The translations under genes and the position numbers were made by a program. The notes under the pieces were generated by a model. That model was not told the origin of the DNA and did not search any database. It saw only the letters and a program-made list of their open reading frames with translations. Of a DNA stretch of 64,000 nucleotides, positions 6,027 to 61,900 are shown in pieces (positions within the stretch are counted from its first letter, which is position 1; every line of letters starts with the position of its first letter). This DNA is from a virus, in the IMG/VR virus record IMGVR_UViG_3300045988_173832. The stretch is one strand, 5' to 3'.

Positions 6027-6395
6027 AGATACACAAATCTCTGATAGACACAGTCTATGGTCTGTCTTCCACGGAACTTAATGCAATCTCAACCAGAAAT
6101 AACAATCAGTTTTACAAGCATAGACAAAGTAAAACACATCATAAGCGAAGACATTATAGAAACTTCTATAAATATGCTGGTGTGTCATCACACCACGACA
6201 AACAGGATTACGAAGATTGTAATAAATATATCGTTTATTTTCGGCGACAAAATCGCAAACCTGATAACAATTTCGGCTATCAGGATGAGCATTTTGTTGA
6301 AACAGAAAACAACTGGAAAGAAACATGAGTCAGAAAATAATATCTGTGGCACAAGCCACGCCACATCAACATTTCTGAAGAAAGGAAAGAACAAA

Positions 6396-14154: not shown

Positions 14155-14536
14155 GGGGGCGTAAAGGTCTCGACGGGGATCTGAACCTCTGATAAGCGTG
14201 TACGGATTGAGCAGATCCGTTCAAAAAGCTCATCGTTGAATAACATTCAACAACTCTGAAGCTGTAGCAGCTTGATGTTACTAGGCGTTCACTAGAGCGC
14301 TGAAAAAGGTATGGAAAGATGAACTGGTGACCTCTGCGTTCCATTGCTTCAAAAGAATTGCCACTAGCTCACAATATCGCTTGTTGTATTGTGATAAAGC
14401 TGCCATGACAAGTAAGTGACCTGTATGGAGGCAGAATCCACCAAGCAGGAACTGACAACAGTGAAACTATCTACACACGTAGAAAATCAGAGTGGAAGAT
14501 TTCTGGACACGGGTTCGATTCCCGTCGCCTCCACCA
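14155..14536 (+). ncRNA. ssrA: tmRNA (ssrA-like) copy 1; tag reading frame GCT CAT CGT TGA... interrupted by in-frame TGA after 3 codons
   Basis: 5' GGGGGCG...TTCGACGGGG and 3' GGACACGGGTTCGATTCCCGTCGCCTCCACCA; acceptor pairing gives G3:U (Ala identity); T-loop TTCGATT. Confidence 0.8.
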
Positions 14537-15813: not shown

Positions 15814-16109
15814 TATTTCATGTACAGAACCAGTGTTTATAGAAGACAGGCTAGAGCCAAGGCAATAAGACGTAAAAAGTTTTATGCCCATGCTACAGGG
15901 TGGATATACACCCAGACGGGGCATTATCAAAGGGCAAGATACACTGTTCCTGCCCTATGTGTGCAGCTAAGTCATCTAGAGATGGCGGTGTTACGAGCAA
16001 TTCTTATGTAATCAAGTCCAAGCAGGGCAAGCTTGCTATCATATTTGCTAGGGAGCAGTTAGCGGACATTGCCTAATCCAACACCTGGGTACCACAAGTA
16101 CCCAGTCAT

Positions 16110-16497
16110 GGGGGCATAAAGGTTTCGACAGGGACTTGAAGCTCAGATAAGCACGTATAGGCTGGTGGGTGAACCTGTATAAAAGCCAACTATTATCGAA
16201 TAACATTCGATGCTACTGAAGCTGTAGCTGCTTAATCGCTACTAGGCAGTCACTAGACTGCTGAAAAGTGTGCAGTGATTTGAACTGGCGACCTCTGTGC
16301 TGTGCATCTAAAAGAAATGCCGCTAGGTTCAGTACCTCGCTTGTTGGGTGCTGTATAACCTTTAATGACAAGTAAGCTACTCATATGGAGGGTGATGACC
16401 ACCAAGTGAGAGCCGACAATAGTAAAAACACCTAAGCGTGTAGAAAGTCAGTGTAGACAGTTTCTGGACACGGGTTCAATTCCCGTCGCCTCCACCA
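16110..16497 (+). ncRNA. ssrA: tmRNA (ssrA-like) copy 2; predicted tag ANYYRITFDATEAVAA (GCC resume at 16185, TAA at 16233)
   Basis: 5' GGGGGCATAAAGGTTTCGACAGGG, 3' GGACACGGGTTCAATTCCCGTCGCCTCCACCA; intact tag ORF ending ..AVAA-stop. Confidence 0.8.
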
Positions 16498-21291: not shown

Positions 21292-22539
21292 ATATCAAAA
21301 GATCACTTATAATATCTTTAGCAGTTGCAATGTTAGCAGTTACCCCCCCCCCATACATTAATACAACATGCCAGCGCAAGTACTGTTGTCTCTGCAACCA
21401 AAATCTCACACAGCTATCCTTATCACTGCAATGAAGGTAGTTATGACGCATCACAGAGTCCTTATGATGGTACTTGGTATGTAAGGGATAAAAAATTATG
21501 TAAGCATGGATCTTTAGCGCCACATCTTTACGATGACAAAGGATATTGCAATTATATTTTGCATGATATAACTGCTGTTGATACAAAACTTGTTATGGAT
21601 TATGAGGGCACTTATCATGGATATCCTGAACCATGTCTTTATGAATTCAATGTTGAAGATATTGCAGCAGATTTAGTGGCATCTGGAATACCTATGACAG
21701 TCTCTATATCTGGACCGATGTATGAGAATAAGTATTTTATTGCAGGGTATAAATATAAACTTAAGACATCGTGTCCTTATCACGTACCGCTACTATTATC
21801 CTCTAAGGCAGGTGTATTTATAGATGCATATTCAGATGAGGTTGAGGTAATTCCAGAGCAATTAATAGGCCACTCTCTAAGCGTAGGCACATTATCTGGG
21901 CAGATATCTATTGCAAAACGTGATACTAAGACAGTAACTCATGATGCCTTAGCTTGTAGCGAAGGATTTCGGAAGATAATTGGTACGCATAAAGATGTAC
22001 ATAGTTCACCAGGAGAAAATCACACAATTTATGATGATAAAGGTAATGCAATTGGTGGATATGGAACAACAAATCATTACTGTGCATATTGTAGAACCTC
22101 ATGGCAAACTGGGGGCAATGCTGTAACTCCAGGATATACAGGAGATGTTTATGACAAAAATGGAAATAAGGTAGGCAGCATATCTGAATCTGATTGGGGC
22201 TCAGATAATACAGGATTAAAATTGATTTTACTTAATGGACTGCCATGGTCAACACAGCCTGTGACGGAAAGTAATGCATGTATAACTGCGAAGTATGATG
22301 TTTGCAGTGAGCATGCTAATTATGTAGGTCCACATTATTTTTGTCCAGATCACGGCTATGTGGGAACATCTGGATACTGTACATATGCACTGGATGGTAA
22401 GCCATTATATGCAGACACAAAATGCTATGGATTTTCAGGAAATGGGTTTGACAGTATTTCAGTGTATAGTGTGACAATTAAAGGAGTCAACGGTGCTACA
22501 GGATATGTGGATTATGTTTCTTCTGTGCAGGTGTCTTAA
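21288..22539 (+). CDS. secreted Cys-rich protein, phase-variable: signal-peptide exon (ATG 21288) is out of frame with ORF 21559..22539 because of a C10 tract at 21343-21352; 9 or 12 C would restore one 417-aa ORF
   Basis: Manual translation: deleting one C fuses MNIKRSLIISLAVAMLAVTPP... in frame to ...LHDITAVDTKL...; paralog of 24526..26013. Confidence 0.6.
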
Positions 22540-42275: not shown

Positions 42276-42671
42276 TTGCAATGTAAAACTGTCACATTTG
42301 AATTTCACAATCTTGATGAAGTAGCTTTAGCAGCTGGAAAAATGCAGATAACATTATCTGATATTACTTCAAACATTAAAATAGCAAATGCACAGGCTAA
42401 TTTGAAGAAGAAAGCAAAGAAAGCTGAAATTATCTTCAAGAGAGATTTCTTTGATGGGCGCTTCAGAGAGTCACAAGATTTGGAATGTATAGCTATCGAA
42501 ACAAATGCAAAATGCTTCCGAATATATTTTGACAATAAATTTTCAGACAGCATAAACCTCAACGAGCATGTGTGGATGAATGACTTCGATAATATGTGTA
42601 TCGCTATAGGGGAATATTCTGAAAACGAACTAAAACAAGTGCATGAGAGATTGAATTATGAATTTAAATGA
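42276..42671 (+). CDS. hypothetical protein (131 aa)
   Basis: ORF track. Confidence 0.4.
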   Translation: MQCKTVTFEFHNLDEVALAAGKMQITLSDITSNIKIANAQANLKKKAKKAEIIFKRDFFDGRFRESQDLECIAIETNAKCFRIYFDNKFSDSINLNEHVWMNDFDNMCIAIGEYSENELKQVHERLNYEFK

Positions 42672-43083
42672 TGAAATAACAAGGCGCATGACACTGTTGG
42701 GCATTTCACAAAGCAGAACATTAGCAGTATCTACATATAGAGGAATTGAGTCCCCAAGTAAAGATGTTAGAGATTATGTCACCTACCTAGAAGAAGAAAA
42801 TAAATGTACCATTTATCATGTGATAGAAGGTCCAGAACTTCTTTCAAATAGATTCTTTATGCTTGCAATCTCCAATGATTCAAACGCTTGGAACAGTGAG
42901 CTTGTTGCTCTACCTGAGAACAGGTTTAAAGCATATGCCTATTTTGGCTCATATAGACAATATCACTATGAACCAGGATACATAACAATAGAACAACATG
43001 GTAATCACTATAGCTACGTAGCTAATCCGAATCTGAGAGAACTCTTTAGCAGTATTCCATGTCCAGGGAAGAAGGTGAACTGA
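42658..43083 (+). CDS. hypothetical protein (141 aa)
   Basis: ORF track. Confidence 0.4.
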   Translation: MNLNDEITRRMTLLGISQSRTLAVSTYRGIESPSKDVRDYVTYLEEENKCTIYHVIEGPELLSNRFFMLAISNDSNAWNSELVALPENRFKAYAYFGSYRQYHYEPGYITIEQHGNHYSYVANPNLRELFSSIPCPGKKVN

Positions 43084-43521
43084 GTGACATTAGAAGAATT
43101 TACAAAGAATTTGTTTGGTGATCAGTTGATTGCCCTATGTAGTACATCAGCAGCGAATGTTTTTTGGCTAGGTACAGCAGCATCAGCAGCAAAGTCTATA
43201 TATGCATACAGTCAGATACTTGCTATTGATTTAGCAGATGCAAAGTTTCAGCCTAAACACCTAACGCGAGCAGACTATTGGAACATAATGTATATTCAGA
43301 TGGTTGATAGCACCCTTAACAGCAATGGCTTTAAGCATTTGTGTTACGCAATTTATCTGAACTATTGGGAAGAAATGCATGTGTTTGATTGTGGAATGGA
43401 GCCAATATGTTATGAAGAGTTCCTTTCAAATGAATATAAAGACAGTGAAGTAATGAAGGAAATTCTTTCACCATCTTTGTTCGAGCAGTATATTAAGATG
43501 AAGGAGGGTGTAAATTCATGA
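43084..43521 (+). CDS. hypothetical protein (145 aa, GTG start)
   Basis: ORF track. Confidence 0.4.
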   Translation: MTLEEFTKNLFGDQLIALCSTSAANVFWLGTAASAAKSIYAYSQILAIDLADAKFQPKHLTRADYWNIMYIQMVDSTLNSNGFKHLCYAIYLNYWEEMHVFDCGMEPICYEEFLSNEYKDSEVMKEILSPSLFEQYIKMKEGVNS

Positions 43522-44087
43522 CATACAGAGAAGTATCTTGCGAAGGAAAAGATCTTAAAGAAGTTGTAGTGTATCTTGTTTCTTTAGCAGCTGAAGGAGA
43601 ATTGGTCTGTACAAACTATCAGGGGACAATGCTGTATTCTGATAAAGTTAGCTTAAATAGTGCATTTATGAATATACTGGGCAAATCTTACCAGAGTTAC
43701 CTTGAGAAAACGCATAAGCAGTCAGATAGTTCAGCTGATTTGGATGAAACAAGCATTACTCAGACACTATTAGGTAGAGGTAAGCAGATTATCGATTCAC
43801 AGTTTTACTCTACTTGGGAAAAATATGTACTAAAGTATGTTAGTAAACAGGGATTTATCGAAATCTTCAATTATGCTCTGAAGATCCTCGCACTTGTGAA
43901 TAAAGGCTGCATGTCAGAGGCTGCAACTACATACAATTCTTGTCCGCCTGCATATCATAAGAACATTTGTCTTTTAGTAGAAAAGTGTTCAGCTTATGGC
44001 GAAAACTTTGTAGCTCGCGTTGTTAGTGCACAGAATATCTACAATGATACAGGAATCACAGGCAGTACGGAGTACTTTAAAAAGTAG
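43518..44087 (+). CDS. hypothetical protein (189 aa)
   Basis: GGAGGG RBS. Confidence 0.45.
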   Translation: MTYREVSCEGKDLKEVVVYLVSLAAEGELVCTNYQGTMLYSDKVSLNSAFMNILGKSYQSYLEKTHKQSDSSADLDETSITQTLLGRGKQIIDSQFYSTWEKYVLKYVSKQGFIEIFNYALKILALVNKGCMSEAATTYNSCPPAYHKNICLLVEKCSAYGENFVARVVSAQNIYNDTGITGSTEYFKK

Positions 44088-44164
44088 AGTATTACCCACA
44101 AATACTTCAGCAGTGATTGTTACAAAGATAACATGGGTAAAGAGCAGACCTTAATGCTCAATTC

Positions 44165-44719
44165 ATGAAGGAGATTGTTATTATGAATAAGCGTATTATT
44201 ACAATGGATGAGACAGTTGCCAGACCTCAGGACGTTCCTCTCGGAAGAGTGCCATGGAAAGATATGAAAGTTGGCGGTATATATCAGCGTAAAGATGGAA
44301 GATATTACATTTATGCTGGTAGAGCTAACACAACACATACAATCCTTGCATCAAGAACTGACTTTGGTGAGAAATATTATTACACTTACATCTATCTAGA
44401 CTATCCTACTGTTTTAACAGAGGATGTAGATACTAACAAGCTGCGGATCATTGCAAGCTCTGCTAAAATCAGAACATCTGAATATAGAGACATTGCAGAG
44501 GCACAGATTGGCATGCTTCCAGGATTTGCAGGACAGTCCGTATGGAAAGTTGCTGACTTTACAATTTATACTGACCCGAAGCATATAAGTGGTGGCTCTA
44601 AGAAGGCAAAAGTTAAGTTCAGTGCAGAAGCAGCTGCAACCTTTAAGGTCTATGAAAAGAAAGCTGAACTTCAGCAGAAGAGAAAGCGTGCAAGCAGGAA
44701 GGCTAGGGCAAAAGCATGA
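44165..44719 (+). CDS. hypothetical protein with Lys/Arg-rich C-terminal tail (184 aa)
   Basis: AAGGAG RBS. Confidence 0.45.
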   Translation: MKEIVIMNKRIITMDETVARPQDVPLGRVPWKDMKVGGIYQRKDGRYYIYAGRANTTHTILASRTDFGEKYYYTYIYLDYPTVLTEDVDTNKLRIIASSAKIRTSEYRDIAEAQIGMLPGFAGQSVWKVADFTIYTDPKHISGGSKKAKVKFSAEAAATFKVYEKKAELQQKRKRASRKARAKA

Positions 44720-45042
44720 CAGATAAGAAAAAGATAACGAAAATGATTAGCACAATCATATGGGCTGTGGTATTTTTTGCTGTAGGAGCTTTAGCAGCAG
44801 TTATGATAGCCTTGGAAGGGATGAAGGGTGCAGCATCATCAACACCTATTATGTATCTTGCGATGGGCAATACACTTTCAGGTACTGTACAGGATAAATC
44901 TTATGATGCTGGAGCTCATATGCTTTCACTGGAGACAAATGAGTTTGGGACAATTACTGTAGATTGTTCTACTGATATGTATAACTCTTGTGACATAGGC
45001 GACACAGTTCATGTTGACTTTGAGCTTTACGCTCACAAATAA
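44716..45042 (+). CDS. membrane-anchored small protein (108 aa)
   Basis: N-terminal TM. Confidence 0.4.
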   Translation: MTDKKKITKMISTIIWAVVFFAVGALAAVMIALEGMKGAASSTPIMYLAMGNTLSGTVQDKSYDAGAHMLSLETNEFGTITVDCSTDMYNSCDIGDTVHVDFELYAHK

Positions 45043-45066
45043 ATCTTTAGCAGGAAGGAGAAGTGT

Positions 45067-45327
45067 ATGGTTAACTATACTCCAAAGTTCAAAGTTGGAG
45101 ATGATTGCATTGTTGAGACATTCACCTCTCGAACATCATTGACGCGTACTCTTAATGATAGGGAGTTCGCAAAAGGTAAAATTATTTATGTACACCCCGC
45201 ACACGGTTGGGCTACTTATAGAGCTTTAGGATATAACATGGCACTTCCTAATGATCAGATTATGACAGTGACAGAGTATCAGGCAATGATTGCTGGTAAG
45301 GCTAATGTAAAACCACTTCGCGTGTAA
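45067..45327 (+). CDS. hypothetical protein (86 aa)
   Basis: ATG preceded by CTTTAGCAGGAAGGAG. Confidence 0.45.
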   Translation: MVNYTPKFKVGDDCIVETFTSRTSLTRTLNDREFAKGKIIYVHPAHGWATYRALGYNMALPNDQIMTVTEYQAMIAGKANVKPLRV

Positions 45328-45329
45328 AA

Positions 45330-45440
45330 ATTAAAGGCTGTAGGATAATCCTACAGCCATTTTCAGTTAAAGAGGCTGTAGGATAATCCTACAGCCGTTT
45401 TCCGTTAAAGAGGCTGCAGGATACCCTGCAGCCATTTTCA
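45330..45440. repeat. three tandem 38-bp units each forming a perfect hairpin (ggctgtaggat-a-atcctacagcc x2; ggctgcagg-ata-ccctgcagcc) followed by TTTTC
   Basis: Read from sequence; period exactly 38 bp (hairpins at 45336, 45374, 45412). Confidence 0.7.
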
Positions 45441-45463
45441 ATTATACAGAAAGGATTCACAAC

Positions 45464-46507
45464 ATGGCAAAAGCAGTGAAGATGCAGACATCCTCTGCAC
45501 CTAAAGTTGGAGGCGGAACAGGTAAGCGTATCATAGCACTTATACTTATGGCATCAATGATTGTAGGCTTGCTATTCCTAGCATCGATGATTATGAATCA
45601 GCGTGAAGAGTTAGTATCTGTAATGCGCCTTAAGAAATCAATTACATCTGGCACAGCAATTACGGATAGTATCTTGGAGGAATATCAGATGCCGAAGAGT
45701 ACTTATGAAACTCTTGGCTCTATTACAATGTATGATGCAAATAATAATCCATATCAGCAGCAGACTTATTTGCTTTGGCAGCAGAAGGAGCAAGTGCTTG
45801 GGATGTTTGCATCTAATTATATTGCTCAAGGCGATGTGCTCACATCAATGGACCTCACACGAACTTTAACAGTACGAAATCCATGGGTTACTGCAATGAA
45901 GGAAGATGAAGAGATATTCACGATGTCTTTTGATGCAGGTACTATTAACACACGAATGATTTACCCTGGAACTCGTCTAAGAGCTAGATTTGTATCCGAA
46001 GTACCTGTAGACAAGCTTAGTGAAGTAAAAACACAGATTGAGCGTGCAGAAAATATTGGTGATGGAACTGACGATATTGTTCACGATGCAGTAACAACTC
46101 TTCATGGTGATATCTTAGAAGACTCTGAGGCTAAGAATAGCGTACAGGTTGCTGAAGTTATTATTGATGAAATTATTATTACAGACATGACTAACAGTTC
46201 CGGTGAGAGTATTTATGACCTCTATATGAGCCTTCTCAAACTCCCAATCAATGAGCGCATCAGCTATCTAAAAACGGGTATTGGTTCAAATGATATTTCT
46301 AATAACTGGGCAGCAAGAGTTACACCTTCTACAATCACATTCATCCTCGATAAGAAATCAGCATCTCGTTTAGCAGAGTTTGAACAGACAGGTGGTACGA
46401 TTAAGTACACAATTCTTCCCGACAAGGCAGATTCTGAAGATCAAGCAAACCTGATGTCTCAGTTTGTTGAACTCAGCAACCAGATAAACACTGTTACGGA
46501 GGATTAA
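45464..46507 (+). CDS. CpaB/RcpC-like pilus assembly protein (N-terminal TM + periplasmic domain)
   Basis: Position at head of Tad-type module; topology. Confidence 0.45.
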   Translation: MAKAVKMQTSSAPKVGGGTGKRIIALILMASMIVGLLFLASMIMNQREELVSVMRLKKSITSGTAITDSILEEYQMPKSTYETLGSITMYDANNNPYQQQTYLLWQQKEQVLGMFASNYIAQGDVLTSMDLTRTLTVRNPWVTAMKEDEEIFTMSFDAGTINTRMIYPGTRLRARFVSEVPVDKLSEVKTQIERAENIGDGTDDIVHDAVTTLHGDILEDSEAKNSVQVAEVIIDEIIITDMTNSSGESIYDLYMSLLKLPINERISYLKTGIGSNDISNNWAARVTPSTITFILDKKSASRLAEFEQTGGTIKYTILPDKADSEDQANLMSQFVELSNQINTVTED

Positions 46508-46509
46508 GC

Positions 46510-47385
46510 ATGAATATTAAACAGCAGCTTATAACTCCACTTGTGACATTGCTTAAGACATTTTCTGGCACCGAAGAAATTCAGGTAAATGTGCCAGATT
46601 ACAGTAACGTCTTTGGATTTTACTCGCCAACAGGAGGTACGGGTGTAACTACATTCGTAGCAAATCTAGGTTATGTCCTTGCATCTCAGCTTAAGGTTGC
46701 TATTGTTGATTTTGACTTATATCATCCGGCACTATTTAGATTCTTACTTGACGATAGCGATGATAAAACAGGATTACACCCAGAAGCTGATTTAGTAGAT
46801 AAACTTATTACGTCAGGAGCTAATATTACTTCCTTTGGTCATACATCAAAGTATAACAATATAACATTGTTCACTGGTATGCCACAGGATGATATCATTA
46901 AGTTCTGTGAGCTGGATTACAACAACATTGTGCAGTGCATTAAGGAACTCTCACGCCTCTACGATATTGTTTTAGTAGACTTTAAGGGCAATCTTGCACA
47001 AGAAACCGTAATGGCTTCAATTGATGCTTGCACACGAGTATTCACATTTATTAGGCCATTGTTTAGTGATGTCGATAGCATGCACAAGGATAATGATCTG
47101 TTAATTCGTTATGGTTATGGAAAGAAACTTACAGCAATTGTACAGGCTAATATTCAGAAGCGATATCTGCCTGATAGTGCTTTTGATGATGAGGACATTT
47201 CAACTGTAATGCGTTTGCCATATGTAAAATCAGTAGAAGACACTGGCGAGAGTTTTGATATTTTCTATGCGACAAATGCAGGTTCATCAAAAGCTGGTGC
47301 AGCTTATGCAGAGTGTTGTAAGTTTATGGCAGAGTATTTATGCAACTACGAAAGAATGATTTTTGAGATGGGAGATGAGAAGTAA
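46510..47385 (+). CDS. TadZ/CpaE-like ParA/MinD-family ATPase (deviant Walker A TGGTGVTT)
   Basis: FYSPTGGTGVTTFVANLGYVLA + hydrophobic beta-strand then D (Walker B-like VAIVDFD). Confidence 0.55.
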   Translation: MNIKQQLITPLVTLLKTFSGTEEIQVNVPDYSNVFGFYSPTGGTGVTTFVANLGYVLASQLKVAIVDFDLYHPALFRFLLDDSDDKTGLHPEADLVDKLITSGANITSFGHTSKYNNITLFTGMPQDDIIKFCELDYNNIVQCIKELSRLYDIVLVDFKGNLAQETVMASIDACTRVFTFIRPLFSDVDSMHKDNDLLIRYGYGKKLTAIVQANIQKRYLPDSAFDDEDISTVMRLPYVKSVEDTGESFDIFYATNAGSSKAGAAYAECCKFMAEYLCNYERMIFEMGDEK

Positions 47386-48917
47386 TGGCGCTTACGAAGG
47401 GATTCTTTACAGCACGACGTTCAGAGAGTGCAGGTAGCGATCTTGCTTCTTGTATTTCCTTTGAGCAGTGTGTAGATATTCTATATTCTTATATCAATCA
47501 ATGTACTCTTGAACAGGAGAGTACCGTTGAAAATATGAATTATGCACAGGTCCGTAAGTTTACTGCAGACTGTATTGTAAACTATGTAAGTTCAAAGCAT
47601 CCTTTGGTGACTGGTTTTGTTGACGAAACCGGAAAAGCCGAATATGGTCGACTTACTAAAGCTTTAACAGATGAAGTGCTCGACTGGGGTGTCTTAACAG
47701 ATGCAATGCAAGACCCTAATGTGTCAGAAATTCAAGGTAATGATTATAAGAGTATCTATGTGGAGAAGAATGGTAAAACAGATCTTCTTCGCTCGGATAT
47801 TACTGATAAGATCATAACTTTTGAGTCAGCCGATGACATGCTCAAGATAGCAAATAAGCTATTACGTTTTTCTGAAGTATCACTTAGTAGGAATGGAGCA
47901 TTGCAGGGCGGTATGACACGTGAGGGCTTCCGTGTTGCAGTCTGCGACCCATCTGTAGCAGCGCCTGATAAGGGAGAAAATCAATTAAAAGATAAATCTC
48001 CTATGTTTGTTATACGTAAGTATGGCTCAACACCACCTAGCCTTGAAAAGTTGATTGGATGGCACTCAGTTACTATACAACAGGCAAATTTTATGAAGAT
48101 CCTAGCAAAGACTGGTTTACCAATTGTAATTTGCGGAGCAACTGGTTCTGGTAAAACAGTACTGCTTCAGTCTATTTTAAATAATCGTGTACCCACTAGA
48201 CGTTTAGCAGTTGTTGAGGATCAGTCAGAGTTAAACGCACGCATGCGTGATGAAAACGGTATAGATAAGTCAAACACAATACAGTTTGAGGCAAGACCAA
48301 CACCACCTAGTGGCACGGCACCTCTTACTTTTCCAACATTCAGTAATGTTACGATGCAGCTACTTCGTATGACACCTAGACTTATTGTATTAGGTGAGAT
48401 GAGAACGGATGAAATCGTATCACAGGCAATAACAGCAGCTTATACCGGCCATGGCTTGTATTCTACTATTCATGCCGAGAATGTTGAAGACTGTGTAACA
48501 CGTATGACAAAGTGTGTACAGGCAACATCTAATGGTACTCCATGGGACGTAAACATGCAAACAGTATGTGCTGCTATTCCATTCATTATCTCTCAGCAGA
48601 GGCTTGATGATGGATCTCGTAAGATGCTTGAATTCTCTGAAATTGAAGGTACTATCATGAAAGATGGAAAGCTAATGCCTAAGGTGAACACATTATTCAA
48701 GTTCATTTCTGATGGACAAGGTATTCATCCTGAGGATGGTAAGCTTCATGGTGAGTTCTATCAGATTAATAAGCTTTCATCTAAAATGATGGAACGCTTG
48801 AAGCTCAAGGCACTTACAAAAGACGAACTGAATATATTACTCTCTGGTCCCGAGCCAGGAACTATGCTGTCATGCACATTTGATGATACAACAGAACAGC
48901 AGGTAGTAAGGAGGTGA
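47385..48917 (+). CDS. TadA/CpaF-type (VirB11-family) secretion ATPase
   Basis: Walker A VICGATGSGKTVLLQSIL; size and context (followed by two polytopic TadB/C-like proteins). Confidence 0.75.
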   Translation: MALTKGFFTARRSESAGSDLASCISFEQCVDILYSYINQCTLEQESTVENMNYAQVRKFTADCIVNYVSSKHPLVTGFVDETGKAEYGRLTKALTDEVLDWGVLTDAMQDPNVSEIQGNDYKSIYVEKNGKTDLLRSDITDKIITFESADDMLKIANKLLRFSEVSLSRNGALQGGMTREGFRVAVCDPSVAAPDKGENQLKDKSPMFVIRKYGSTPPSLEKLIGWHSVTIQQANFMKILAKTGLPIVICGATGSGKTVLLQSILNNRVPTRRLAVVEDQSELNARMRDENGIDKSNTIQFEARPTPPSGTAPLTFPTFSNVTMQLLRMTPRLIVLGEMRTDEIVSQAITAAYTGHGLYSTIHAENVEDCVTRMTKCVQATSNGTPWDVNMQTVCAAIPFIISQQRLDDGSRKMLEFSEIEGTIMKDGKLMPKVNTLFKFISDGQGIHPEDGKLHGEFYQINKLSSKMMERLKLKALTKDELNILLSGPEPGTMLSCTFDDTTEQQVVRR

Positions 48918-48925
48918 GTTGATAG

Positions 48926-49903
48926 ATGGAAAACATCGTTTTAGCAGGTATTGGAATACTTGCCTACTTCTTTATGCGCACTTTAACGGGGCTAAAGATC
49001 TTCCCGTTACTTCATGAGATACTCACTGCTTTAACAGGCTCTGCAGTTAAGTCTACAACTCAATTTCGAGAACAGACTGCAGTGACATTTAGAAGAATGT
49101 CACTTGATGAAAAGCGTAAGAGCATGAAATATCGCTACTACTGTTTCATCAATGAGGTCTTAGCAGCATTTGGCTTAAAACAGCGTGGAATCAACGTTGA
49201 GGGCTTTACAATGTCTCTTATTGCAATTGTGATTGCAATAAGCATTGTTATTGCACTAGTAACTTCATCAGTGGCTTATGCTTTGCTATTACCAATTATC
49301 TTACTGCCAACTTTTATTGCATTAATATTTTTGGGATCACGTATGAGGGTACGCAAACGCAAAATTGAACTTTTGGATGCCATGGATATCTTATGTGCAG
49401 TTATGACAGATGGAATACTAAAAGCTGTTAAAGAAAACTATGCACAGTTCCCAATAGATATTCAGGAGTATTTTAAAAAGTTCGTGAGCAACATTGAACT
49501 CTTAAACATGTCAGTACCACAGGCAGTACAAGAGTTGAATGAAGATATCGGTAGTCTGTATGATGAATTTTGTGATAGTGTCATCACATACGAGGCAAAT
49601 AGAGCTAGAGGTATGGAAACTCTGTTCAATTTTTATATCTCGGAGAATGGTAAGACACAGGCTCGTGATAGGCAGATAAAGCGATTAAGTGATTCAGCTA
49701 ATATGGACTATTTTGCTTCATTGCTAGTTATTATTCTATTTGGTGTATTCTCATCAGTGTTTCTTGGAGGCGATTCAAGCTTGTGGGCAACACCATTAGG
49801 CAAAGTTGTAATAGTGCTATTGATCTTGGGAGCGGTAGGTGTATTTATATACATACAATATTTACTTTCAAAGCCATTCATTTATACGGAGAAAGATAAT
49901 TAA
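48926..49903 (+). CDS. TadB-like (GspF-domain) inner-membrane platform protein
   Basis: Polytopic membrane protein directly after secretion ATPase. Confidence 0.55.
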   Translation: MENIVLAGIGILAYFFMRTLTGLKIFPLLHEILTALTGSAVKSTTQFREQTAVTFRRMSLDEKRKSMKYRYYCFINEVLAAFGLKQRGINVEGFTMSLIAIVIAISIVIALVTSSVAYALLLPIILLPTFIALIFLGSRMRVRKRKIELLDAMDILCAVMTDGILKAVKENYAQFPIDIQEYFKKFVSNIELLNMSVPQAVQELNEDIGSLYDEFCDSVITYEANRARGMETLFNFYISENGKTQARDRQIKRLSDSANMDYFASLLVIILFGVFSSVFLGGDSSLWATPLGKVVIVLLILGAVGVFIYIQYLLSKPFIYTEKDN

Positions 49904-50847
49904 TGACACAGATTGCCAACAACATAGTCAAGTTCTTCTCAGAGAAATGGCCTATACTGGCAATTGCAGTTGTTGCCATAGTATTCTGTTTTCTGCTTTA
50001 CAAATGGTTGTTTACGCCAAGAAAAAGCACAGTACAGAGTAATTCAGAGAAGAATCGTAAACGGATTGATAAAGGAATTTCTTATAAAGAAAACCAAAAA
50101 GCATTACAAGCTAAAATCGACATTGCAAAGTTCTGGGGAAAGTTACCACTAGTTTCTTTCACAGAAGAGGACAAAGAAGAGCTTCAAAAACTCATTTTAG
50201 CAGTAGATAAACGAACGCCATCTGGGCGTTTGATGCTACCTGAAGAGATTTATTGCCAGCAGCTATTTATAGCTCTGGCAATAATTTTTGTATGTGTAAT
50301 CTTGATGTTTCTTACACCTTTTACAATCTTGGGTGTACTTATAGTTCCAATCATTATGCGTACACCAGTTAAAACGTTAGAAGGAGAACGAAAGGATTTT
50401 GCTGTTGCTTTAGCAGATGAATTTCTCTCTTTTTATAAATTGTATTTTGTCCAGTTTATTCAACCGGATAATACAACAACTCTCTCAGCAGTAATTAATG
50501 ACTATTTACCAAATGCATCATTGTCAGTAAAGAAAATACTGAAAGTAGTGGATAGTGATTTGGCTAAGGGAGAAGAATTTGCACTGAAGCGTTTTGATGC
50601 ACGCTTCCCAGACAGCCCAAAAGTACATAAGTTTTGTTCTGTCGCTCGAGCTAGGACAAAGGGTGATGAAACAAGCTATGAAACAATGAAAAGCTTTCTG
50701 GATCTTTTACAGGAAGAGCATGATGTGTATTTTGACACAGAGTGCAAGAAACGTGAAAAGCGAATTGAATCAGTTATAGGCATATTCTTAGCAATAAGTT
50801 TATGTATTGTTGCGTTCATGGCTTTCGCGATGATGTTTATGGTCTAA
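49903..50847 (+). CDS. TadC-like (GspF-domain) inner-membrane platform protein
   Basis: Polytopic; start overlaps previous stop. Confidence 0.55.
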   Translation: MTQIANNIVKFFSEKWPILAIAVVAIVFCFLLYKWLFTPRKSTVQSNSEKNRKRIDKGISYKENQKALQAKIDIAKFWGKLPLVSFTEEDKEELQKLILAVDKRTPSGRLMLPEEIYCQQLFIALAIIFVCVILMFLTPFTILGVLIVPIIMRTPVKTLEGERKDFAVALADEFLSFYKLYFVQFIQPDNTTTLSAVINDYLPNASLSVKKILKVVDSDLAKGEEFALKRFDARFPDSPKVHKFCSVARARTKGDETSYETMKSFLDLLQEEHDVYFDTECKKREKRIESVIGIFLAISLCIVAFMAFAMMFMV

Positions 50848-50860
50848 GGAGGACGCATAT

Positions 50861-51082
50861 ATGAATCTTAAGAAGATAGGGCCAGTTGTAGCAATTTTGG
50901 CCGTAGTACTTGTAATCGCAATTGTAGTTATCGCAAACTGGACCACCTGGCTTTCAGCTTTAGGTGACTTCGCTGGTGAGCAGGTTGGTCTTGATGGACT
51001 TGGCACTGCTGTTATCGGTGATGCAACAGGTAGAGATGGCGCGCAGGGTAATGGTAATGGCGGAGGCGCACAGGTTCCGTAA
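50861..51082 (+). CDS. Flp-type pilin-like small protein (73 aa, one hydrophobic helix, Gly-rich tail)
   Basis: AAGGAGG RBS; position after TadC; no canonical G/xxxxEY motif. Confidence 0.4.
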   Translation: MNLKKIGPVVAILAVVLVIAIVVIANWTTWLSALGDFAGEQVGLDGLGTAVIGDATGRDGAQGNGNGGGAQVP

Positions 51083-51155
51083 TTACTAAATTGACACTCA
51101 TAGAGAGGGAGTCCTAGCTCCCTCCAACTATTGATTAAAGATAAAGGAGAAAAAT

Positions 51156-52724: not shown

Positions 52725-54251
52725 ATGTTAAATGTAATTCTAACAAACAAACCAAACAAACGTGACCTCTTAGACAGGTTTATTCGATCAAGAGGAATTT
52801 CAAATTTTATCATCATCACAGAGGCTGCAGATATTGGGAGTATTCTCAGTGATATTATGATTACTAGCGATTCGACTTTTAATCTCCATATTTTTGACTA
52901 TTACGGAGACCTTTCGATAGTTAATACAATTCGTGATTACAGAGATCAGATTAATCTTCTTCGTGTATACGTAGCATCTATTGAGGATTCACATGCATAT
53001 CTGACTTTAACAGAAGATGTGTTTATAATGCCGAATGTATTTGATATTCTTATGTACTTTTGGGATTCAGATGCTTGTCGAGCTAAGAATGTTGCTGCGT
53101 TTGACTTGATGCATATTGACTTCTTCAAAGTAAACATTCCTGACTCACTTGGTAGAACAGATCAGTTAGCAATTAATATAAACACGCAGCAGATTCCTTT
53201 GAAGTACAAGACAGCAAGTGGATCGATTGTAGAAACACAGGGACCACAGCTTGTAGTTTCTTGTAAAGCAAAGTCAAAAGAGATTAAATCAATCTTTGAT
53301 ACAAGAAATCAAGAGGAAGTCTATAGTCACCGAGTAAGAGATCTATCTGACCTTCCAACAGACATTGTGGAAGATCCAGTTCCTAAGAAAGAACAGGAAA
53401 TTGTCATCACTAAAGAGCCCAAACCTGTCAAAGTCAAAGAAACTAAACCAGTTAAAGTTAAAGAGCCTAAGTCTATTAAGGAAAAACAGATTAAGCAGGC
53501 ACAACCGGAGAAAGGAAGCTCAGACAAACATGATAATGGTTTCTCTGCTTTCTTTAAGAAGTTCAAGTTCAAGGAAGATGAACATGTTACAGAACCTTTA
53601 GCAGTTGAGGAAGAACCTGTTGCAACGCCAGAGCCAGAACCAATTCAGGAACAGATACCAATACCAGAGGAGCAGAAGTCCGCAGAGTCTATACCAACTC
53701 CACAACCAGAGGAATCAAAGTCAAAGCCAGAACTAAAACCTTTTGTTACTTTCTCTGGTGTGAAGGGTGGTACAGAAGTAGCGACTGGTCGTGCACCTAC
53801 ACGCAGATACACACTATCAGAGGTGTATGCATCAATATCGCAGTATTGCATTGAGAAGAAATATATTTCTGCTGAGGATGGTGTATCTTTACAGAAGGAA
53901 GTTGCTAATAAGCCTTCAAGAGATGCACTGTTTGGTAATCTTGCATTAGAACGTGGTCTGATTACAGAAGAGCAGCTGATAGATGCAGTAACACAGGTAA
54001 ACCATGTAGAGATTCTTACATGGGAAAAAATATCTGCAATGGAGCTCGATTTCACATACTTTAACAGTGACAAGTGCAAGGAGTTCAAGTTCTTTAAACT
54101 TAAAGATGCTCAGCCTAATGATACAGCACAAATAGTTTGTGCTTTCTCTCTATCTAGTATACATCCAGAGGTTAGACGTTTATTCGATAATCCACGAATT
54201 TTGTATACGCTCGATTCCTACATCACACGTAAGTTAGGAGAAACTTCATGA
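52725..54251 (+). CDS. pilus-module accessory protein with Pro/Glu/Lys-rich linker and C-terminal GspE_N/MshEN-like domain (..ERGLITEEQLIDAVTQ..)
   Basis: Motif resemblance to T2SSE_N; KPVKVKE repeats. Confidence 0.4.
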   Translation: MLNVILTNKPNKRDLLDRFIRSRGISNFIIITEAADIGSILSDIMITSDSTFNLHIFDYYGDLSIVNTIRDYRDQINLLRVYVASIEDSHAYLTLTEDVFIMPNVFDILMYFWDSDACRAKNVAAFDLMHIDFFKVNIPDSLGRTDQLAININTQQIPLKYKTASGSIVETQGPQLVVSCKAKSKEIKSIFDTRNQEEVYSHRVRDLSDLPTDIVEDPVPKKEQEIVITKEPKPVKVKETKPVKVKEPKSIKEKQIKQAQPEKGSSDKHDNGFSAFFKKFKFKEDEHVTEPLAVEEEPVATPEPEPIQEQIPIPEEQKSAESIPTPQPEESKSKPELKPFVTFSGVKGGTEVATGRAPTRRYTLSEVYASISQYCIEKKYISAEDGVSLQKEVANKPSRDALFGNLALERGLITEEQLIDAVTQVNHVEILTWEKISAMELDFTYFNSDKCKEFKFFKLKDAQPNDTAQIVCAFSLSSIHPEVRRLFDNPRILYTLDSYITRKLGETS

Positions 54252-55618
54252 TAGGTGTTGTATTGACAAAACGTCGAGAAGAGTTCTATAAACTTGCATC
54301 TAAGTATGCATTACAGTTCGAGGAAATATTTGATATCTCTGATACTGAAACTTTATGTTCCTATGAGAAAATTTATACTGATGGTCCTGCTATTCCTGCA
54401 GGGCCATTTTTGGTTAAGGATATATCTTCAGTTGATCTTAGAACAATTTTTATAGAATCGCCATTGATAGATGCTGAAGTTTTGTTAAAACAGGCATATC
54501 TTAGATATACTTTTGAAAAGTTTCAAGATGCTATACGGGTTGAGCCATTATCATTCTCTTGTACCTTTGAGGAGCCTTCTATTGTTGATGAATCTACTCA
54601 AGTTAAGATAAAACCGGTTATACTTGATAAAGTACAAGCAAATCCTGTTATAGATAAACCTGTTTTTGAAAAAGAACCTACAGTTGACTTTCAAGACATC
54701 TTTAACAGCGGTGAACCTGAACCTGAACCAGTACAAGAACGTGAGCAAGAGTCAACATTCATAAACGAGCCTCCATCATCAAAAGTATATCCTACAGACT
54801 TGTTTGTACAAAAACCAAAGCAGACGCAGCCTGTCAGAAGAACTTCATTGCAACCTGGATCAATTCGAGTACGTGGATTCACACAAAGAAAAAAGATATT
54901 CCAGGTTCCTGTTTTCACATTTAACAGTTTAACAGATAAAACTGGCACAACAACTCTCACAGCAGCTTTAGCAGTGGCAATGGCAATCCAGCAACCTTCT
55001 GCAAAGATATTGTACTTGGATTTGGATATGTCAAATCCAAATTATCTTTTGGAAATGTGGAATCGTAATCCAGGAACAGATGCTAGTGTTAAAACAATTG
55101 CAGGTTTAGCAGAGGCTGATTTTGAGCAGAACATTTCTCTGTTATCGGAAACTATTTCTGTTTCACAAGCAGTATTTTCATTAATTACTTGGGGACAGAC
55201 CACTTTCGTTGAAAAGAGAATATTAGCAGCACAGGATTTCAATTTATTCATAAACATTATCTACAATAGCTTTGACCTCATTCTTGTAGATATGGGAAAG
55301 CTCCAGTCAACTCTTGATTATCAGATGAAAATGCTCATGTCAACATCAACAAAGCATTTCATTATTGCAGATGGTTCAACATCTCGTAATGTGAGTACAT
55401 TCATTCAGTTAGCCAGTCAGTTACCTTATAATTTTGAAGTAATTATAAATAAGAACGTGCCTCAATCAGGATCTTTTGCAATTACACAACAATTAAGACA
55501 AAATCCTATTGCTACTGTAGGATATTATAGAAATATTGATAGAATTCTCACTGATCAGTTACCTATGCAGGGGACTGCGCTGTTCACTGAATTGTGTGAG
55601 TTAGGAGGTAAACTCTGA
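54248..55618 (+). CDS. second TadZ/CpaE-like ParA/MinD-family protein (deviant P-loop KTGTTT)
   Basis: FTFNSLTDKTGTTTLTAALAVAMA. Confidence 0.45.
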   Translation: MIGVVLTKRREEFYKLASKYALQFEEIFDISDTETLCSYEKIYTDGPAIPAGPFLVKDISSVDLRTIFIESPLIDAEVLLKQAYLRYTFEKFQDAIRVEPLSFSCTFEEPSIVDESTQVKIKPVILDKVQANPVIDKPVFEKEPTVDFQDIFNSGEPEPEPVQEREQESTFINEPPSSKVYPTDLFVQKPKQTQPVRRTSLQPGSIRVRGFTQRKKIFQVPVFTFNSLTDKTGTTTLTAALAVAMAIQQPSAKILYLDLDMSNPNYLLEMWNRNPGTDASVKTIAGLAEADFEQNISLLSETISVSQAVFSLITWGQTTFVEKRILAAQDFNLFINIIYNSFDLILVDMGKLQSTLDYQMKMLMSTSTKHFIIADGSTSRNVSTFIQLASQLPYNFEVIINKNVPQSGSFAITQQLRQNPIATVGYYRNIDRILTDQLPMQGTALFTELCELGGKL

Positions 55619-57855: not shown

Positions 57856-58948
57856 GGAGGTTTATATGCAAACAAAGATAAATAAATGGATGTGCGTTGA
57901 TAAGCAAACGCACATTTTTCGTGCTTTAGTATCATTGCTTATTGTAACAATGATGTTTTTATCACAGGCGTCTTTAGCAGTGACAACATATGCAGCAACA
58001 TCAGTTAGCTTTGATGACTATGCAACTTTTCTTGCCTATGATCAAGCAAGAAACAGTATAGATCCAAAGTCTGGTACTACAGAGAATAAAGACTTTGCTT
58101 TAGCAGATACAGATGCAATAGAAGACACCACAACGGACAATATTCCTAGCGTTTGGGGACTTATTGCTAATGTCGCTGATGCAAAAGCTGCCGGCAAGAT
58201 TGATTCAGTAAAGCAGCCTGTTCTGACAAAACTTTCAGCAACAGCACAGCGTATTACATCAAGTACAACACAAGCCAAGTTTACAGAGCAGGTTAAGGCA
58301 GTTTATGCTGCAGCTGGGGGTAAAATAAAAATCCATACTGGCACGGGTGCCTATGAAGCAGGGGACTCTAATTATGCATCGAAATTGCGTACAGCTGTAG
58401 GCAACTTCAATGCAGCTCAAGCAAGTAGTGCAGCAACGGATGTTTTTGAGTCTATATATGGGGCAGAGAACTGGCATCCTGATACAGGACTTGCTACAGA
58501 GGCAATGGCAGTTATCTATTCTGTTGTAAATGTCATCTTTACAGTTGTTGCACAGATCATTATGTGGTTCTTCATGGCACAATCAGCATTTGATTTATTC
58601 TATATCTCATTTGAGCCTATTAGACCCTTCATTGGTCCAAAGGGTAGCGGAGAGAGTAGAGCTAACAACAATGGCGGCGGAGGATTTTGGGATAAGTTTT
58701 GTATTCCGATCTGCTCTAATGCTGCAGTTGAAGCCGCAAATGGAAGCAGCAAGGGTGGCATGGATGGTGGAGCTAGCACAAACTCCAGTAAAGCTGCTAT
58801 CAACTACATAATTAAACGTGCACCATTACTGATAACAATTGCAATTTACTTTATTCTTTCAGTAATGGGTTACTGGACAAAGGTTATTGGTTGGGTAGCA
58901 GATTTTGTTATCAGAATCTTTAACTTTATTTTATCTATCGGCGGATAA
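57848..58948 (+). CDS. exported membrane protein with Gly-rich segment (366 aa)
   Basis: Signal peptide, C-terminal TM helices. Confidence 0.45.
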   Translation: MDKEVYMQTKINKWMCVDKQTHIFRALVSLLIVTMMFLSQASLAVTTYAATSVSFDDYATFLAYDQARNSIDPKSGTTENKDFALADTDAIEDTTTDNIPSVWGLIANVADAKAAGKIDSVKQPVLTKLSATAQRITSSTTQAKFTEQVKAVYAAAGGKIKIHTGTGAYEAGDSNYASKLRTAVGNFNAAQASSAATDVFESIYGAENWHPDTGLATEAMAVIYSVVNVIFTVVAQIIMWFFMAQSAFDLFYISFEPIRPFIGPKGSGESRANNNGGGGFWDKFCIPICSNAAVEAANGSSKGGMDGGASTNSSKAAINYIIKRAPLLITIAIYFILSVMGYWTKVIGWVADFVIRIFNFILSIGG

Positions 58949-58980
58949 TCATGTATGTGTCCGCCATATGGGGGACATAT

Positions 58981-61900
58981 ATGAAAAAAGTCATAGCAAC
59001 AATCATGGCTGCGGCAGTTATGCTGTCGCAGCTTTCTTTACTCGTCAAGGCAACAGATGGTAATCCTTTAGCAGTATCAAATAGAGTGACTGCAGACATT
59101 AATGAACTTAGACAGCGCGAAGAGGATATCAAAAATCAACGTGCTGCGCAAAAAGCAGCCTCAAGAGCCCTAATTAACTACGGAAAAACTACGGGAAAGA
59201 CAAATGATCTCTCGTTTTATATAAATCGTAAAAATCTGACTAAACGCGAATTCGAAGCATTCAAGTGGTCATTTATATTTAGTCAGTTTGCACATCCTTT
59301 AGAAGATTCTTTATTAAATGTTTTTGATCAGGATTTCTTTCAAGAATTGTCTAAGGCTGATCTTGATATTGATTCAGTTAGAACGACGATTTTGAATAGT
59401 GGCTTAGTAGCAGATTCTGATGATATCAAAGCTAGCTCGATGGATACAGATCTTCAGGCAATGATGTTGCAAGATGTGAATTTTAATGAATTAGCTGAAG
59501 TTATAAAGTCTAATTATGCTATATACCCATTAGTAGACTCAAATGGAACACCTGCAAGCCTGGATTCTTTTATATCAGGGGATCTCGGTCTTTATGAGCC
59601 TTTCTTTATCTATGACACCCATGGAACTGCTGATAGTGTTAATGAACTTAATGCACTTTTATATTCCAAGGATAAACTGACCGACCTGGATAAGAATTAT
59701 GGAGATAAATGGACTCTTACAGGGTTTACAACAGATGATTCTGCAGAACCCTATAAAGTGCCTGTATTATTTTATGACAGTAATACATTTTTAGCTATGC
59801 AGATGGCAATGACAATCTACATGACAAATAATGATTACAGTTCTCTGACAGAAGCGGTGGCATTTCTTGGTGCGCAAACTTTAGCAGTAGATTCTTATGG
59901 TAATATTTGCTTACAGAAGCAATCAGGCGACGCTGTTATATTTATCCCCAACTTTTATAATACAGTATTAACATCAGTGTTATGCGAGATAGATGGCGGT
60001 GAGAAGACTAAACAGGCTTTGCGTGAGACAATGGATTTGTTTAATGTTTGGTTTGTTGCATTGTATTCAAAAAACACTAGAACTCGTACAACTATTTATC
60101 CAGCTGTTTATACAACACATGTAAATGGTAGTACATCAAAAATCGTAAACCCAGATACTGGCGAAATTGAAGAAAAGGCAACAGAAGTCTTAGCAGACCA
60201 TTATGCACAACTAATAGGAGGTACAAGTCACTCATTATCTCGAAAGTTTCTGTTGGTAGAAAACTCAATCATATCTCCAGGAGAACAGCAAACTCAGGCT
60301 GTAGTGGATAGTGCTATAGATAATAAAGATGATGAAACTGCATTAGCATTTTCTCATGCAGCAAAAATGATAGCAGAAAAAACATTGAGTGAGTATATAG
60401 ATTCTTGGTTTCCTGGAAACATGAGTTCACGTCCAAAATCTGACGCATCAAATGTTGGTACTCTCGTTTCACCTTATAACACACATGCTTCAGCATTTAT
60501 GCCATTTACTGCAAATGACTCGAGTAAACCAACATACTTTGAGAATAAGTATCCACTTGCACAAGCACAAGTTGCCTTTAAGGAAAAAGATGTAATAAGC
60601 TCTGATGCAGCAAGTGCAACAAACTTTAGCAGGTTTGCAGCTATACTTGAAAATGCAAAATGGAAGTATATACTCTCTCCGAGAAGAGGAAGCTATAGTA
60701 CTCATAGTATACAGAGCTCCATGCATGCAGCATACAACGATAGTTCAAATATGATGGCTATTAATCCAACTGTTTCATTGATGACATCACTTCCAGCAGA
60801 GCAACTCATTCCAGACTTAAGATTTGTTAGTGCAAAGAAGAGCGAGCAATCAACAGGAGCTAGAACAGTAATATTTTTGCCAAAAGAAATACTTGACTTA
60901 GGACAGACCATGTCTGCATATACTCTATCAGATGAGAAAGGAATGTTCTTGTCTCAATATGAGGTTTATTTCTCGGGAGATATAGAAAGATTTCGAGAGT
61001 ATATGCTGGGAACATATAATCAAGTTCTAGGTACAGATTCAGGCCGATTCTTGACAGTAGATTATGATAGTGGAGTGCTCAAGGTGAAATCACTAGCGAC
61101 CTTTAACAGAACCTATCTCACTGAAGACACTGAATTTACACTATCTTGGAGCACTAATAAATATACTAGTACAGATTTTTTCGATTATGTTCATTACAGT
61201 ATTAAAGATGAGTATAAAAGCGGTCATTACAATGAGGGAGCACGATATGTTTATGAGGTCTTGAAGGAAAAAAAGGACGAAGATGGTAATACATATTATG
61301 AAAATTATGATCCTACAAAATACACCGTTAGTAGTGATGAGAAGTCCGGAGACAAGTACAGTTTTATTGCCGCTTATTATTATGATTCTGATATTATTGA
61401 TCCGGGCATATCTACTGGTTCATGTAGCGAGATTCCAACACCAGATTACAAGTTGAAAAATGATAGTGCAGACGCTAAAATGAAAGCAGGAGCTCAAGCC
61501 TTATGGGCAGCAGGTGCTGCTATTGCAGGTATGTCAAAAGATGCAGAATATGGTAGTACTGAAGGATTTCAGAAGCTCTTAGCAGATGTGTGTGCATCAT
61601 GTGGCTTTAACACAGACGAATTCTATTACATGCTCGTAAACATCTATAGATTCAATGGAAAAGATAATGGTACATTTGGAATAAACAGTGTTTATTTCTA
61701 TGATGAATATACTTGTCTATTGCGTAATGGTGCAACAGCATTTTCTGATATTGATTGTGAGAACTCTGATGACTTTGTGCAAACAACTTATTACTGGGAT
61801 AGATATTATTTAACTAAACAGCAGCTTTCTCAGGATGTTTCAGATTATGTAAACAAGCAGTATGAGTCTATAGATTCTTTAGTAAGTGATTATGAAAATT

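Follow-up and report, generated by a model that had tools for sequence, protein, structure and literature searches.

The intergenic region at the head of a divergent Tad-like pilus module carries three tandem 38-bp units, each made up of a GC-rich hairpin and a short T-run, and comparison of these sequences leads us to the view that they are probably tandem, individually weak intrinsic terminators, acting as an internal attenuator or insulator before the pilus operon. Such a triple terminator was among the options raised in an initial annotation of this DNA, and it is supported by the comparison: eight of ten diverged lineages have a hairpin and T-tract here, with the stems replaced and with G·U wobbles that pair in the sense RNA only. 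The array is most likely a signal of a known and ordinary kind, present at an unusual triple dose.

Anatomy of the hairpin array

The window (the whole 64,000-nucleotide stretch of DNA that was analysed) contains the following parts of the array, listed with the source of each call.

45335-45444, plus strand: tandem array, 2.9 copies of a 38-bp unit consisting of hairpin, T-run and 'GTTAAAGA' spacer (Tandem Repeats Finder, repeat search, sequence)
45336-45358, plus strand: hairpin 1, GGCTGTAGGA-TAA-TCCTACAGCC, 10 bp, dG -16.3 kcal/mol (sequence, fold)
45359-45366, plus strand: tail of hairpin 1, ATTTTCAG (sequence)
45374-45396, plus strand: hairpin 2, stem-loop identical to that of hairpin 1 (GGCTGTAGGA-TAA-TCCTACAGCC), 10 bp (sequence, fold)
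45397-45404, plus strand: tail of hairpin 2, GTTTTCCG (sequence)
45412-45433, plus strand: hairpin 3, GGCTGCAGG-ATAC-CCTGCAGCC, 9 bp, dG -17.7 kcal/mol, a compensatory variant (sequence, fold)
45434-45441, plus strand: tail of hairpin 3, ATTTTCAA (sequence)

The hairpins start exactly 38 bp apart, as had been described, and Tandem Repeats Finder agrees, reporting 45335-45444 of the window as a repeat of period 38 with 2.9 copies, 87% matches and a score of 171. In all three array hairpins the stem contains six or seven G-C pairs and closes a loop of 3-4 nt, with dG values of -16.3 to -17.7 kcal/mol. The initial annotation gave perfect stems of 9-11 bp; we find 9-10 bp, the value of 11 being reached by counting a pair that leaves a loop of 1 nt. 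The TTTTC said to follow each hairpin is read directly in the tails of units 1, 2 and 3 (ATTTTC, GTTTTC and ATTTTC respectively), where the T-run begins 1 nt past each stem, and unit 3 is indeed compensatory relative to units 1 and 2, a T>C change in its 5' arm being paired with a matching A>G change in its 3' arm. The 15-nt stretches between the hairpins (TTTTCNGTTAAAGA) repeat as well, so that the repeat is the whole 38-bp unit.

The array is a real, non-random feature of this DNA. The exact 23-mer hairpin occurs at two places only in the window and gave 0 matches in 100 dinucleotide shuffles, and a 171-nt region folds at -71 kcal/mol compared with -34.7 +/- 4.2 kcal/mol for shuffled sequences (z = -8.75). 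In addition, the three hairpins are found within the top four terminator-like matches of 36-55 kb. In the minimum free energy fold computed over the whole region, units 1 and 2 can pair with each other in place of the local hairpins, and the minus-strand fold of the array region equals the plus-strand fold in stability.

As RNA, the tails (AUUUUCAG, GUUUUCCG and AUUUUCAA) have a U-run of four consecutive U, amounting to 4/8 of the tail, with A or G before it. These runs passed a loose terminator consensus scan, and as tracts they are sub-optimal; the canonical intrinsic terminator has a U-rich tract of about 7-9 nt directly following its hairpin (PMC3993855).

Gene context of the junction

The genes and signals on either side of the array, and the next hairpin downstream, are as follows.

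45067-45327, plus strand: 86-aa ORF, last gene of a small-ORF cluster at 42276-45327 (ORF list; homologues at the same position in relatives)
45450-45455, plus strand: Shine-Dalgarno-like AAAGGA, 8 nt before the ATG at 45464 (sequence)
45464-46507, plus strand: 347-aa membrane-anchored CpaB/RcpC-like protein, first gene of the Tad-like module (N-terminal transmembrane segment; weak SAF matches)
46510-47385, plus strand: TadZ/CpaE-like ParA-family ATPase (Pfam CbiA/AAA_31; NCBIfam)
47385-48917, plus strand: TadA/CpaF-like secretion ATPase (Pfam T2SSE, E 6e-26; TIGR03819, E 2e-27, below its cut-off)
48926-50847, plus strand: two TadB/TadC-like polytopic membrane proteins of 325 and 314 aa (gene order alone)
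50861-51082, plus strand: 73-aa hydrophobic pilin-like small protein (translation)
51105-51124, plus strand: hairpin GAGGGAGT-CCTA-GCTCCCTC just after the pilin-like gene (hairpin scan)

All genes of the window lie on the plus strand. The array is on the sense strand, past the end of a coding region, and takes up the 136 bp that separate the 86-aa ORF, which is the last of the seven small ORFs of its cluster, from the 347-aa ORF. Hairpin 1 starts 8 nt past the TAA stop codon of the 86-aa ORF, and the end of hairpin 3 is separated from the ATG of the 347-aa gene by 30 nt, within which the AAAGGA ribosome-binding site is located, so that there is no room for a sigma-70 promoter.

The array had been placed at the head of a pilus module, and the gene order bears this out, as the SAF/CpaB-like, TadZ-like and TadA-like proteins and the two polytopic membrane proteins come next. 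A weak SAF domain match is present in 8/15 family members of the 347-aa protein, and all relatives have a small gene at the pilin-like position. The module is Tad-like but very divergent, and 'head of a Tad-like module' is a fair description of where the array lies.

The hairpin right after the pilin-like gene has a counterpart at the corresponding position in seven of the ten scanned relatives.

L149, 11674-11695: post-pilin hairpin
L151, 11640-11663: post-pilin hairpin
L153, 11580-11605: post-pilin hairpin
L154, 11555-11579: post-pilin hairpin
L155, 8602-8629: post-pilin hairpin
L156, 11657-11680: post-pilin hairpin
L160, 11504-11529: post-pilin hairpin

It often has no T-run, as in the window (CAACTATT), L149, L153 and L160, and is likely to be transcript-stabilizing or attenuating. 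Single GC-rich hairpins also mark several other gene boundaries of the element.

The same junction in diverged relatives

The family of the 347-aa protein comprises 25 clusters with 39-100% identity, and we read the junction in ten diverged lineages (39-75%). The identities given below are those of this protein family comparison.

L149/L150, 75% identity: one hairpin, GGCTGTGAGG-TTA-CCTCACAGCC, followed by TTTTTT
L151, 65% identity: two copies of GGGTTGCGA...TCGC(A/G)ACCC followed by TTTT(T), 74 bp apart
L152, 64% identity: three units at 57-58 bp, GGGCTGTG(A/G)GG...CC(T/C)(C/T)GCAGCCC
L153, 56% identity: two unrelated hairpins
L154, 53% identity: no hairpin; genes 3 nt apart
L155, 48% identity: two units at 33 bp (GGGAGTGA...)
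L156, 47% identity: one hairpin followed by TTTTTT
L159, 47% identity: three units at 48 bp, TGGGAGT(A/G)GC...GCTGCTCCCA followed by TTTTT
L160, 39% identity: no hairpin; genes overlap
L161, 51% identity: one hairpin followed by TTTTT

One to three units of hairpin and T-tract are thus found at the same junction in 8/10 lineages. The stems are unrelated in sequence from one relative to another (GGCTGTGAGG, GGGTTGCGA, GGGAGTGA, TGGGAGTAGC, AGGCGTCGC and others), each is followed by 3-6 T, and the T-run always lies 3' on the sense strand; what is conserved at homologous positions is structure rather than sequence, with the polarity of the transcribed strand. Tandem arrays occupy the junction in five separate lineages, with periods of 33, 38, 48, 57-58 and 74 bp. 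As a weak trend, the T-runs are longest in the single-hairpin lineages, at 6, 6 and 5 T, and those of the array lineages are 3-5 T long.

Because the palindromes of the window are perfect, the strand polarity rests on the relatives. In L151, L152 and L159 the imperfect pairs are all G·U or U·G on the plus strand and would be A·C mismatches on the minus strand or in a duplex palindrome, and folding as sense RNA gives the hairpins of these three lineages 4-7 kcal/mol of extra stability over the minus strand. RNAalifold, run on a MAFFT alignment of 19 units, detected double changes in 4/7 pairs; as this alignment is not a structural one, the covariation counts understate the case, and we relied on the folds of individual units.

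L151, L154 and L159 have homologous small genes upstream. This homology, taken together with the abutting or overlapping genes of L154 and L160, which have no hairpins, indicates that the junction lies inside a transcription unit, and the existence of two lineages without a hairpin indicates that the array is dispensable.

A point of annotation concerns 6001-6051 of L149/L150, where the public call of the gene for P0002 (364 aa) puts the GTG start inside the terminator hairpin. The gene probably begins instead with the ATG at about 6052, which has AAAGGA before it; the called start is an artefact, and it conceals the hairpin between the genes.

Variation among strains

Among ten near-identical gut strains that were fetched, two (L024 and L027) have two units, so that unit number among strains is 2-3. 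L024 has lost one unit by fusion of units 1 and 2 and L027 has lost the third hairpin, their genes being otherwise identical to those of the three-unit strains. Smaller changes comprise an A<->T flip of the central loop base in L019 and L025 and, in L025, C>A at the pair that closes the loop of unit 3. In L158, a 310-kb contig, unit 2 reads GGCTGCAGGA-TTA-TCCTGCAGCC, with both arms altered and pairing retained, and L157, a short contig, ends within the array. The copy-number differences and the paired changes of L158 together indicate that the repeat number is unstable and that the stems are maintained.

Terminator reading and proposed mechanism

Terminators that act as sense-strand RNA are favoured by the retention of structure and 3' T-run while the stem sequences were replaced, and by the wobbles of L151, L152 and L159, which pair on the plus strand only. 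The repeat periods lack helical phasing, which favours terminators over DNA sites, and the terminator reading is further favoured both by the single GC-rich hairpins at other gene boundaries, including that after the pilin-like gene, and by the compensated stem change within the species (L158 unit 2). Rfam 15 gave no match to the array at the gathering threshold; its E-value mode returned only generic hairpin or miRNA-precursor matches and matches to sRNA terminator ends, all far below threshold, and the sub-threshold bacterial alignments cover only the terminator ends of sRNA models.

We propose that tandem duplication of one 38-bp terminator gave rise to three Rho-independent units on the sense (plus) strand. 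RNA polymerase coming from the upstream small-gene cluster would transcribe each GC-rich hairpin together with its short U-run (AUUUUC or GUUUUC). With only four consecutive U, each unit is probably leaky or sub-optimal, and three units in series would multiply their efficiencies, so that most transcripts would be removed before the Tad-like operon. As no promoter fits after the array, and as the genes abut in some relatives, the array would be an internal attenuator or insulator; the pilus genes, as we infer along with termination itself and its partial efficiency at each unit, would depend on read-through for their expression, perhaps aided by factor-dependent antitermination. Unit number, which is 0-3 between lineages and 2-3 between strains, would then determine how much transcription reads through.

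Several points weigh against the terminator reading. Full termination would silence the pilus operon, and we identified no promoter for that operon anywhere, a result that we count on the same side. So do we count the regional fold in which units 1 and 2 pair, the dependence of the strand polarity on the relatives, and the two lineages that manage with no hairpin. The U-tract is short relative to the canonical 7-9 nt, the extra copies of the array could be neutral products of slippage, and the rules of bacterial terminators may be inapplicable if the element has an RNA polymerase of its own.

A more elaborate form of the terminator reading, which we put forward tentatively and hold to be unlikely, is that of a 'terminator rheostat', in which slippage or unequal recombination between identical palindromic units would alter unit number and tune the leak into the pilus operon strain by strain, such arrays having been rebuilt by selection, time and again, at this single junction in separate lineages.

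Alternative explanations

If a single terminator suffices, the extra units might be neutral products of slippage or unequal recombination, and their number would then have no regulatory meaning. The two-unit strains L024 and L027 do coexist with three-unit strains whose genes are otherwise identical, several lineages get by on one hairpin or none, and the assembly of L157 breaks inside the array, as is expected of an unstable repeat. However, arrays occur at this one junction in five lineages, with unit lengths of 33, 38, 48, 57-58 and 74 bp, and neither the 64-kb window nor the 10-13 kb that we read per relative contained another duplicated hairpin. This recurrence at a single junction, with no other hairpin duplicated, suggests selection for multiplicity here, and we consider neutral copies to be decidedly unlikely.

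The evidence for RNA structure on the sense strand would also suit an element of RNA stability or processing, whose hairpins would shield the 3' end of the upstream mRNA, or the 5' end of a cleaved pilus mRNA, from exonucleases and so set their half-lives. REP hairpins set relative mRNA half-lives in E. coli operons. What makes such a role improbable as the explanation of the array is the presence of 3-6 T after every junction hairpin in every lineage, which a pure stabilizer does not need; on the other side stand the shortness of the array U-runs and the post-pilin hairpin, which is often without a T-run and so indicates that the element uses hairpins other than classical terminators. The two functions are not mutually exclusive, and stabilization may coexist with termination.

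Iterated binding sites were the other option raised at the outset, and the array would in that case consist of duplex DNA sites, serving a ParA-type ATPase as a sopC/parS-like centromere or else bound, as a multi-operator, by a pilus-operon repressor. In its favour, the design of tandem units, each with an inverted repeat, recalls F sopC, the downstream region has two ParA-family genes (46510-47385 and 54248-55618) and the palindromes of the window are perfect. Against this, the palindrome sequence is not kept among relatives whose neighbouring proteins are 47-75% identical, arm changes within the species are compensated too, the periods (33, 38, 48, 57-58 and 74 bp) are not helically phased, and the mismatches of the relatives are all G·T and on one strand only. 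The adjacent ParA-like gene precedes a T2SSE/TadA ATPase, which is the TadZ-CpaF context, and the flanking 347-aa protein is membrane-anchored with a SAF domain and is not a DNA binder. We found no HTH, RHH or ParB domain in 20 neighbouring proteins, and a 310-kb contig of the element has the exact hairpin at a single place. With no conserved sequence, no phasing, a TadZ context and no DNA-binding domain nearby, this option is unsupported, and we regard it as very improbable.

An antisense small RNA would start from the following promoter-like match.

45441-45470, minus strand: sigma-70-like promoter match TTGCCA-18-TATAAT, 11/12, overlapping the ribosome-binding site and start codon and pointing into the array (promoter scan)

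The resulting three-hairpin transcript of ~105 nt, which would end at hairpin 1, followed on the minus strand by TTTAATTTTT, is scarcely credible. For it, the match is the best promoter-like one of a 19-kb scan, the folds of the two strands are equally stable and the -10 element corresponds to the 'TTATAC' block before the ribosome-binding site, partly conserved, as judged by eye, in L152, L155, L156 and L161. Against it, the coding sequence ATGGCAA fixes the -35 element, the scan shows no excess of promoter-like matches (62 found versus 65.6 expected), A·C mismatches weaken the minus-strand hairpins in relatives, where no T-run follows them except at the first hairpin of L159, and there is no Rfam family match.

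Rejected identities and database searches

It had been suggested that the unit be sought elsewhere in the element. This search did not bring up any further copy: no other copies of the hairpin with <=3 mismatches are present in the 64-kb window, and the array occupies a single place in the 309,885-bp contig CDYQ01014008.1, so that a dispersed REP/BIME/MITE-like repeat was rejected. A CRISPR array was rejected because the 15-nt stretches between the hairpins are repeated and are not unique spacers. A riboswitch, leader-peptide or RAT-type attenuator does not fit either, there being no ATG in the array and no segment complementary to the 5' arm within 44600-46200; the nearest 9-mer identical to an array arm, and the only nearby one, lies 550 nt upstream. 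Although a reverse transcriptase gene lies 8 kb upstream, a DGR target-site hairpin was discarded, as no TR/VR-like repeat pair was found in 33-46 kb. Finally, a PeSL-like promoter inside each unit was rejected, since the sole match (TTTTCA-16-GATAAT, 9/12) has no equivalent in relatives and promoter-like matches are no more frequent than expected.

A search of IMG/VR yielded no relative of the 347-aa protein, and the array pattern gave only single chance palindromes there; the element as such has no match in that collection. In genome contigs, a loose-pattern search produced, among the matches listed, single palindromes in unrelated taxa, and the phage and plasmid reference collections (GenBank phages and PLSDB) contained no nucleotide match to the element.

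Comparison with known systems

E. coli rrnB T1-T2 and engineered double terminators are examples of tandem intrinsic terminators. The array resembles these in having a sense-strand GC-rich hairpin and U-run just after a stop codon, and in having its units in series, where read-through of one would be caught by the next. Unlike the rrnB T1-T2 type, its units are near-identical 38-bp duplicates rather than unrelated terminators, its U-runs are short (4 U) and its copy number differs among strains. Since it lies inside an operon, directly before the ribosome-binding site, it probably attenuates rather than ends transcription.

Pilus and fimbrial operons contain attenuating or stabilizing hairpins within the operon, for example after the major pilin gene. 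There, as is proposed for the array, hairpins at gene boundaries set transcript levels, and the element itself also has a conserved post-pilin hairpin; the array differs in being triplicated and in preceding the assembly genes instead of following the pilin gene.

The centromere-like sopC of the F plasmid consists of 43-bp units with inverted repeats, and the array likewise has tandem units of ~40 bp with an inverted repeat near a ParA-family gene. Unlike sopC, the array has neither a conserved binding sequence nor a ParB or centromere-binding gene, its family shows asymmetric mismatches of the G·T type only and one-sided T-runs, and the ParA-like gene is of the TadZ type.

REP/BIME elements and the PeSL of T4-type phages are, like the array, intergenic GC-rich palindromes at module boundaries, at times clustered, with the upstream gene content varying between relatives. 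REP and PeSL elements are dispersed in many copies per genome, whereas the array hairpin is unique in the window and lies at one place in the 310-kb contig, and no promoter motif accompanies it, unlike the PeSL of T4-type phages.

The element and its other features

The GC content of the window is 34-41% in 2-kb windows and mostly 35-40%. Features that bear on the identity of the element, and others that were observed along the way, are listed below.

6057-7253: 398-aa HK97-type major head protein (phrog_422 'major head protein', E 5e-63)
14155-14536 and 16110-16497, plus strand: two tmRNA genes, 2 kb apart (Rfam, 110.7 and 108.4 bits)
36335-37567: reverse transcriptase (RVT_1, E 8.5e-32)

Capsid proteins from phages of Streptococcus, Clostridioides and Stenotrophomonas share 32-37% identity with the head protein, and these matches indicate that the 200-320 kb element is phage-like. 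The exact 347-aa protein occurs in 356 blocks of public assemblies, most of which are human-gut contigs of 10-320 kb, and we regard the element as a large, uncharacterized phage-like element of Bacillota. It has strong Shine-Dalgarno sites. The 'Hodor' gut megaplasmids have 44-47% GC and a T4SS (PMC12934698); identity with a 'Hodor' megaplasmid is ruled out by the lower GC of the window (34-41%) and by the Tad-like module.

Of the two tmRNA genes, ARAGORN calls only the second (16110-16497), with the tag peptide ANYYRITFDATEAVAA, and a hairpin lies immediately before each gene (14124-14148 and 16085-16105). A reverse transcriptase is also present near the pilus module in L153, L154 and L156. 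After the pilus module, a giant ORF with a signal-peptide-like N-terminus runs from 58981 past the end of the window, covering >1,670 codons (open frame 58924-63999), and probably encodes a surface protein. A 237-bp tandem duplication at 3748-4208 (1.9 copies, 78% identity) lies inside the ORF at 3488-4222 and corresponds to a repeated protein domain.

The window also contains a polar 8-mer, TTTAGCAG, which is present in 80 copies on the plus strand and two on the minus strand (for example at 45046, 40837 and 12184), or about one per 800 bp, with a median spacing of 616 nt. Most copies lie inside ORFs, in the frame NCT-TTA-GCA-GNN (Leu-Ala), and the ORFs contain 66 copies, compared with 7.3 +/- 2.6 when synonymous codons are shuffled and 2.1 +/- 1.6 when codon order is shuffled. 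The relatives retain the 8-mer or a shifted form of it, TCTAGCAG at 24:0 in L151 and TTTAGTAG at 12:0 in L154. The motif could be a Chi-like, translocase-orienting, primase-related or RNA-level signal; literature searches for it returned nothing relevant. In our view this polar, co-evolving DNA or RNA signal is a less usual feature than the hairpin array. A C10 homopolymer (21343-21352) closely follows two copies of the motif in a 267-bp stretch without a long ORF, and could be a site of slippage or phase variation, or else a frameshift prone to sequencing error.

Significance of the array

Taken alone, the array is routine regulatory punctuation, of modest value as a natural case of terminator multiplication by tandem duplication. 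Its copy-number variation between strains and the recurrence of arrays at one operon junction across lineages could serve the study of how read-through is tuned in uncultured mobile elements. The array is, in addition, the 5' limit of the divergent Tad-like pilus module, and the phage-like element of human-gut Bacillota to which this module belongs is very widespread and 200-320 kb in size.
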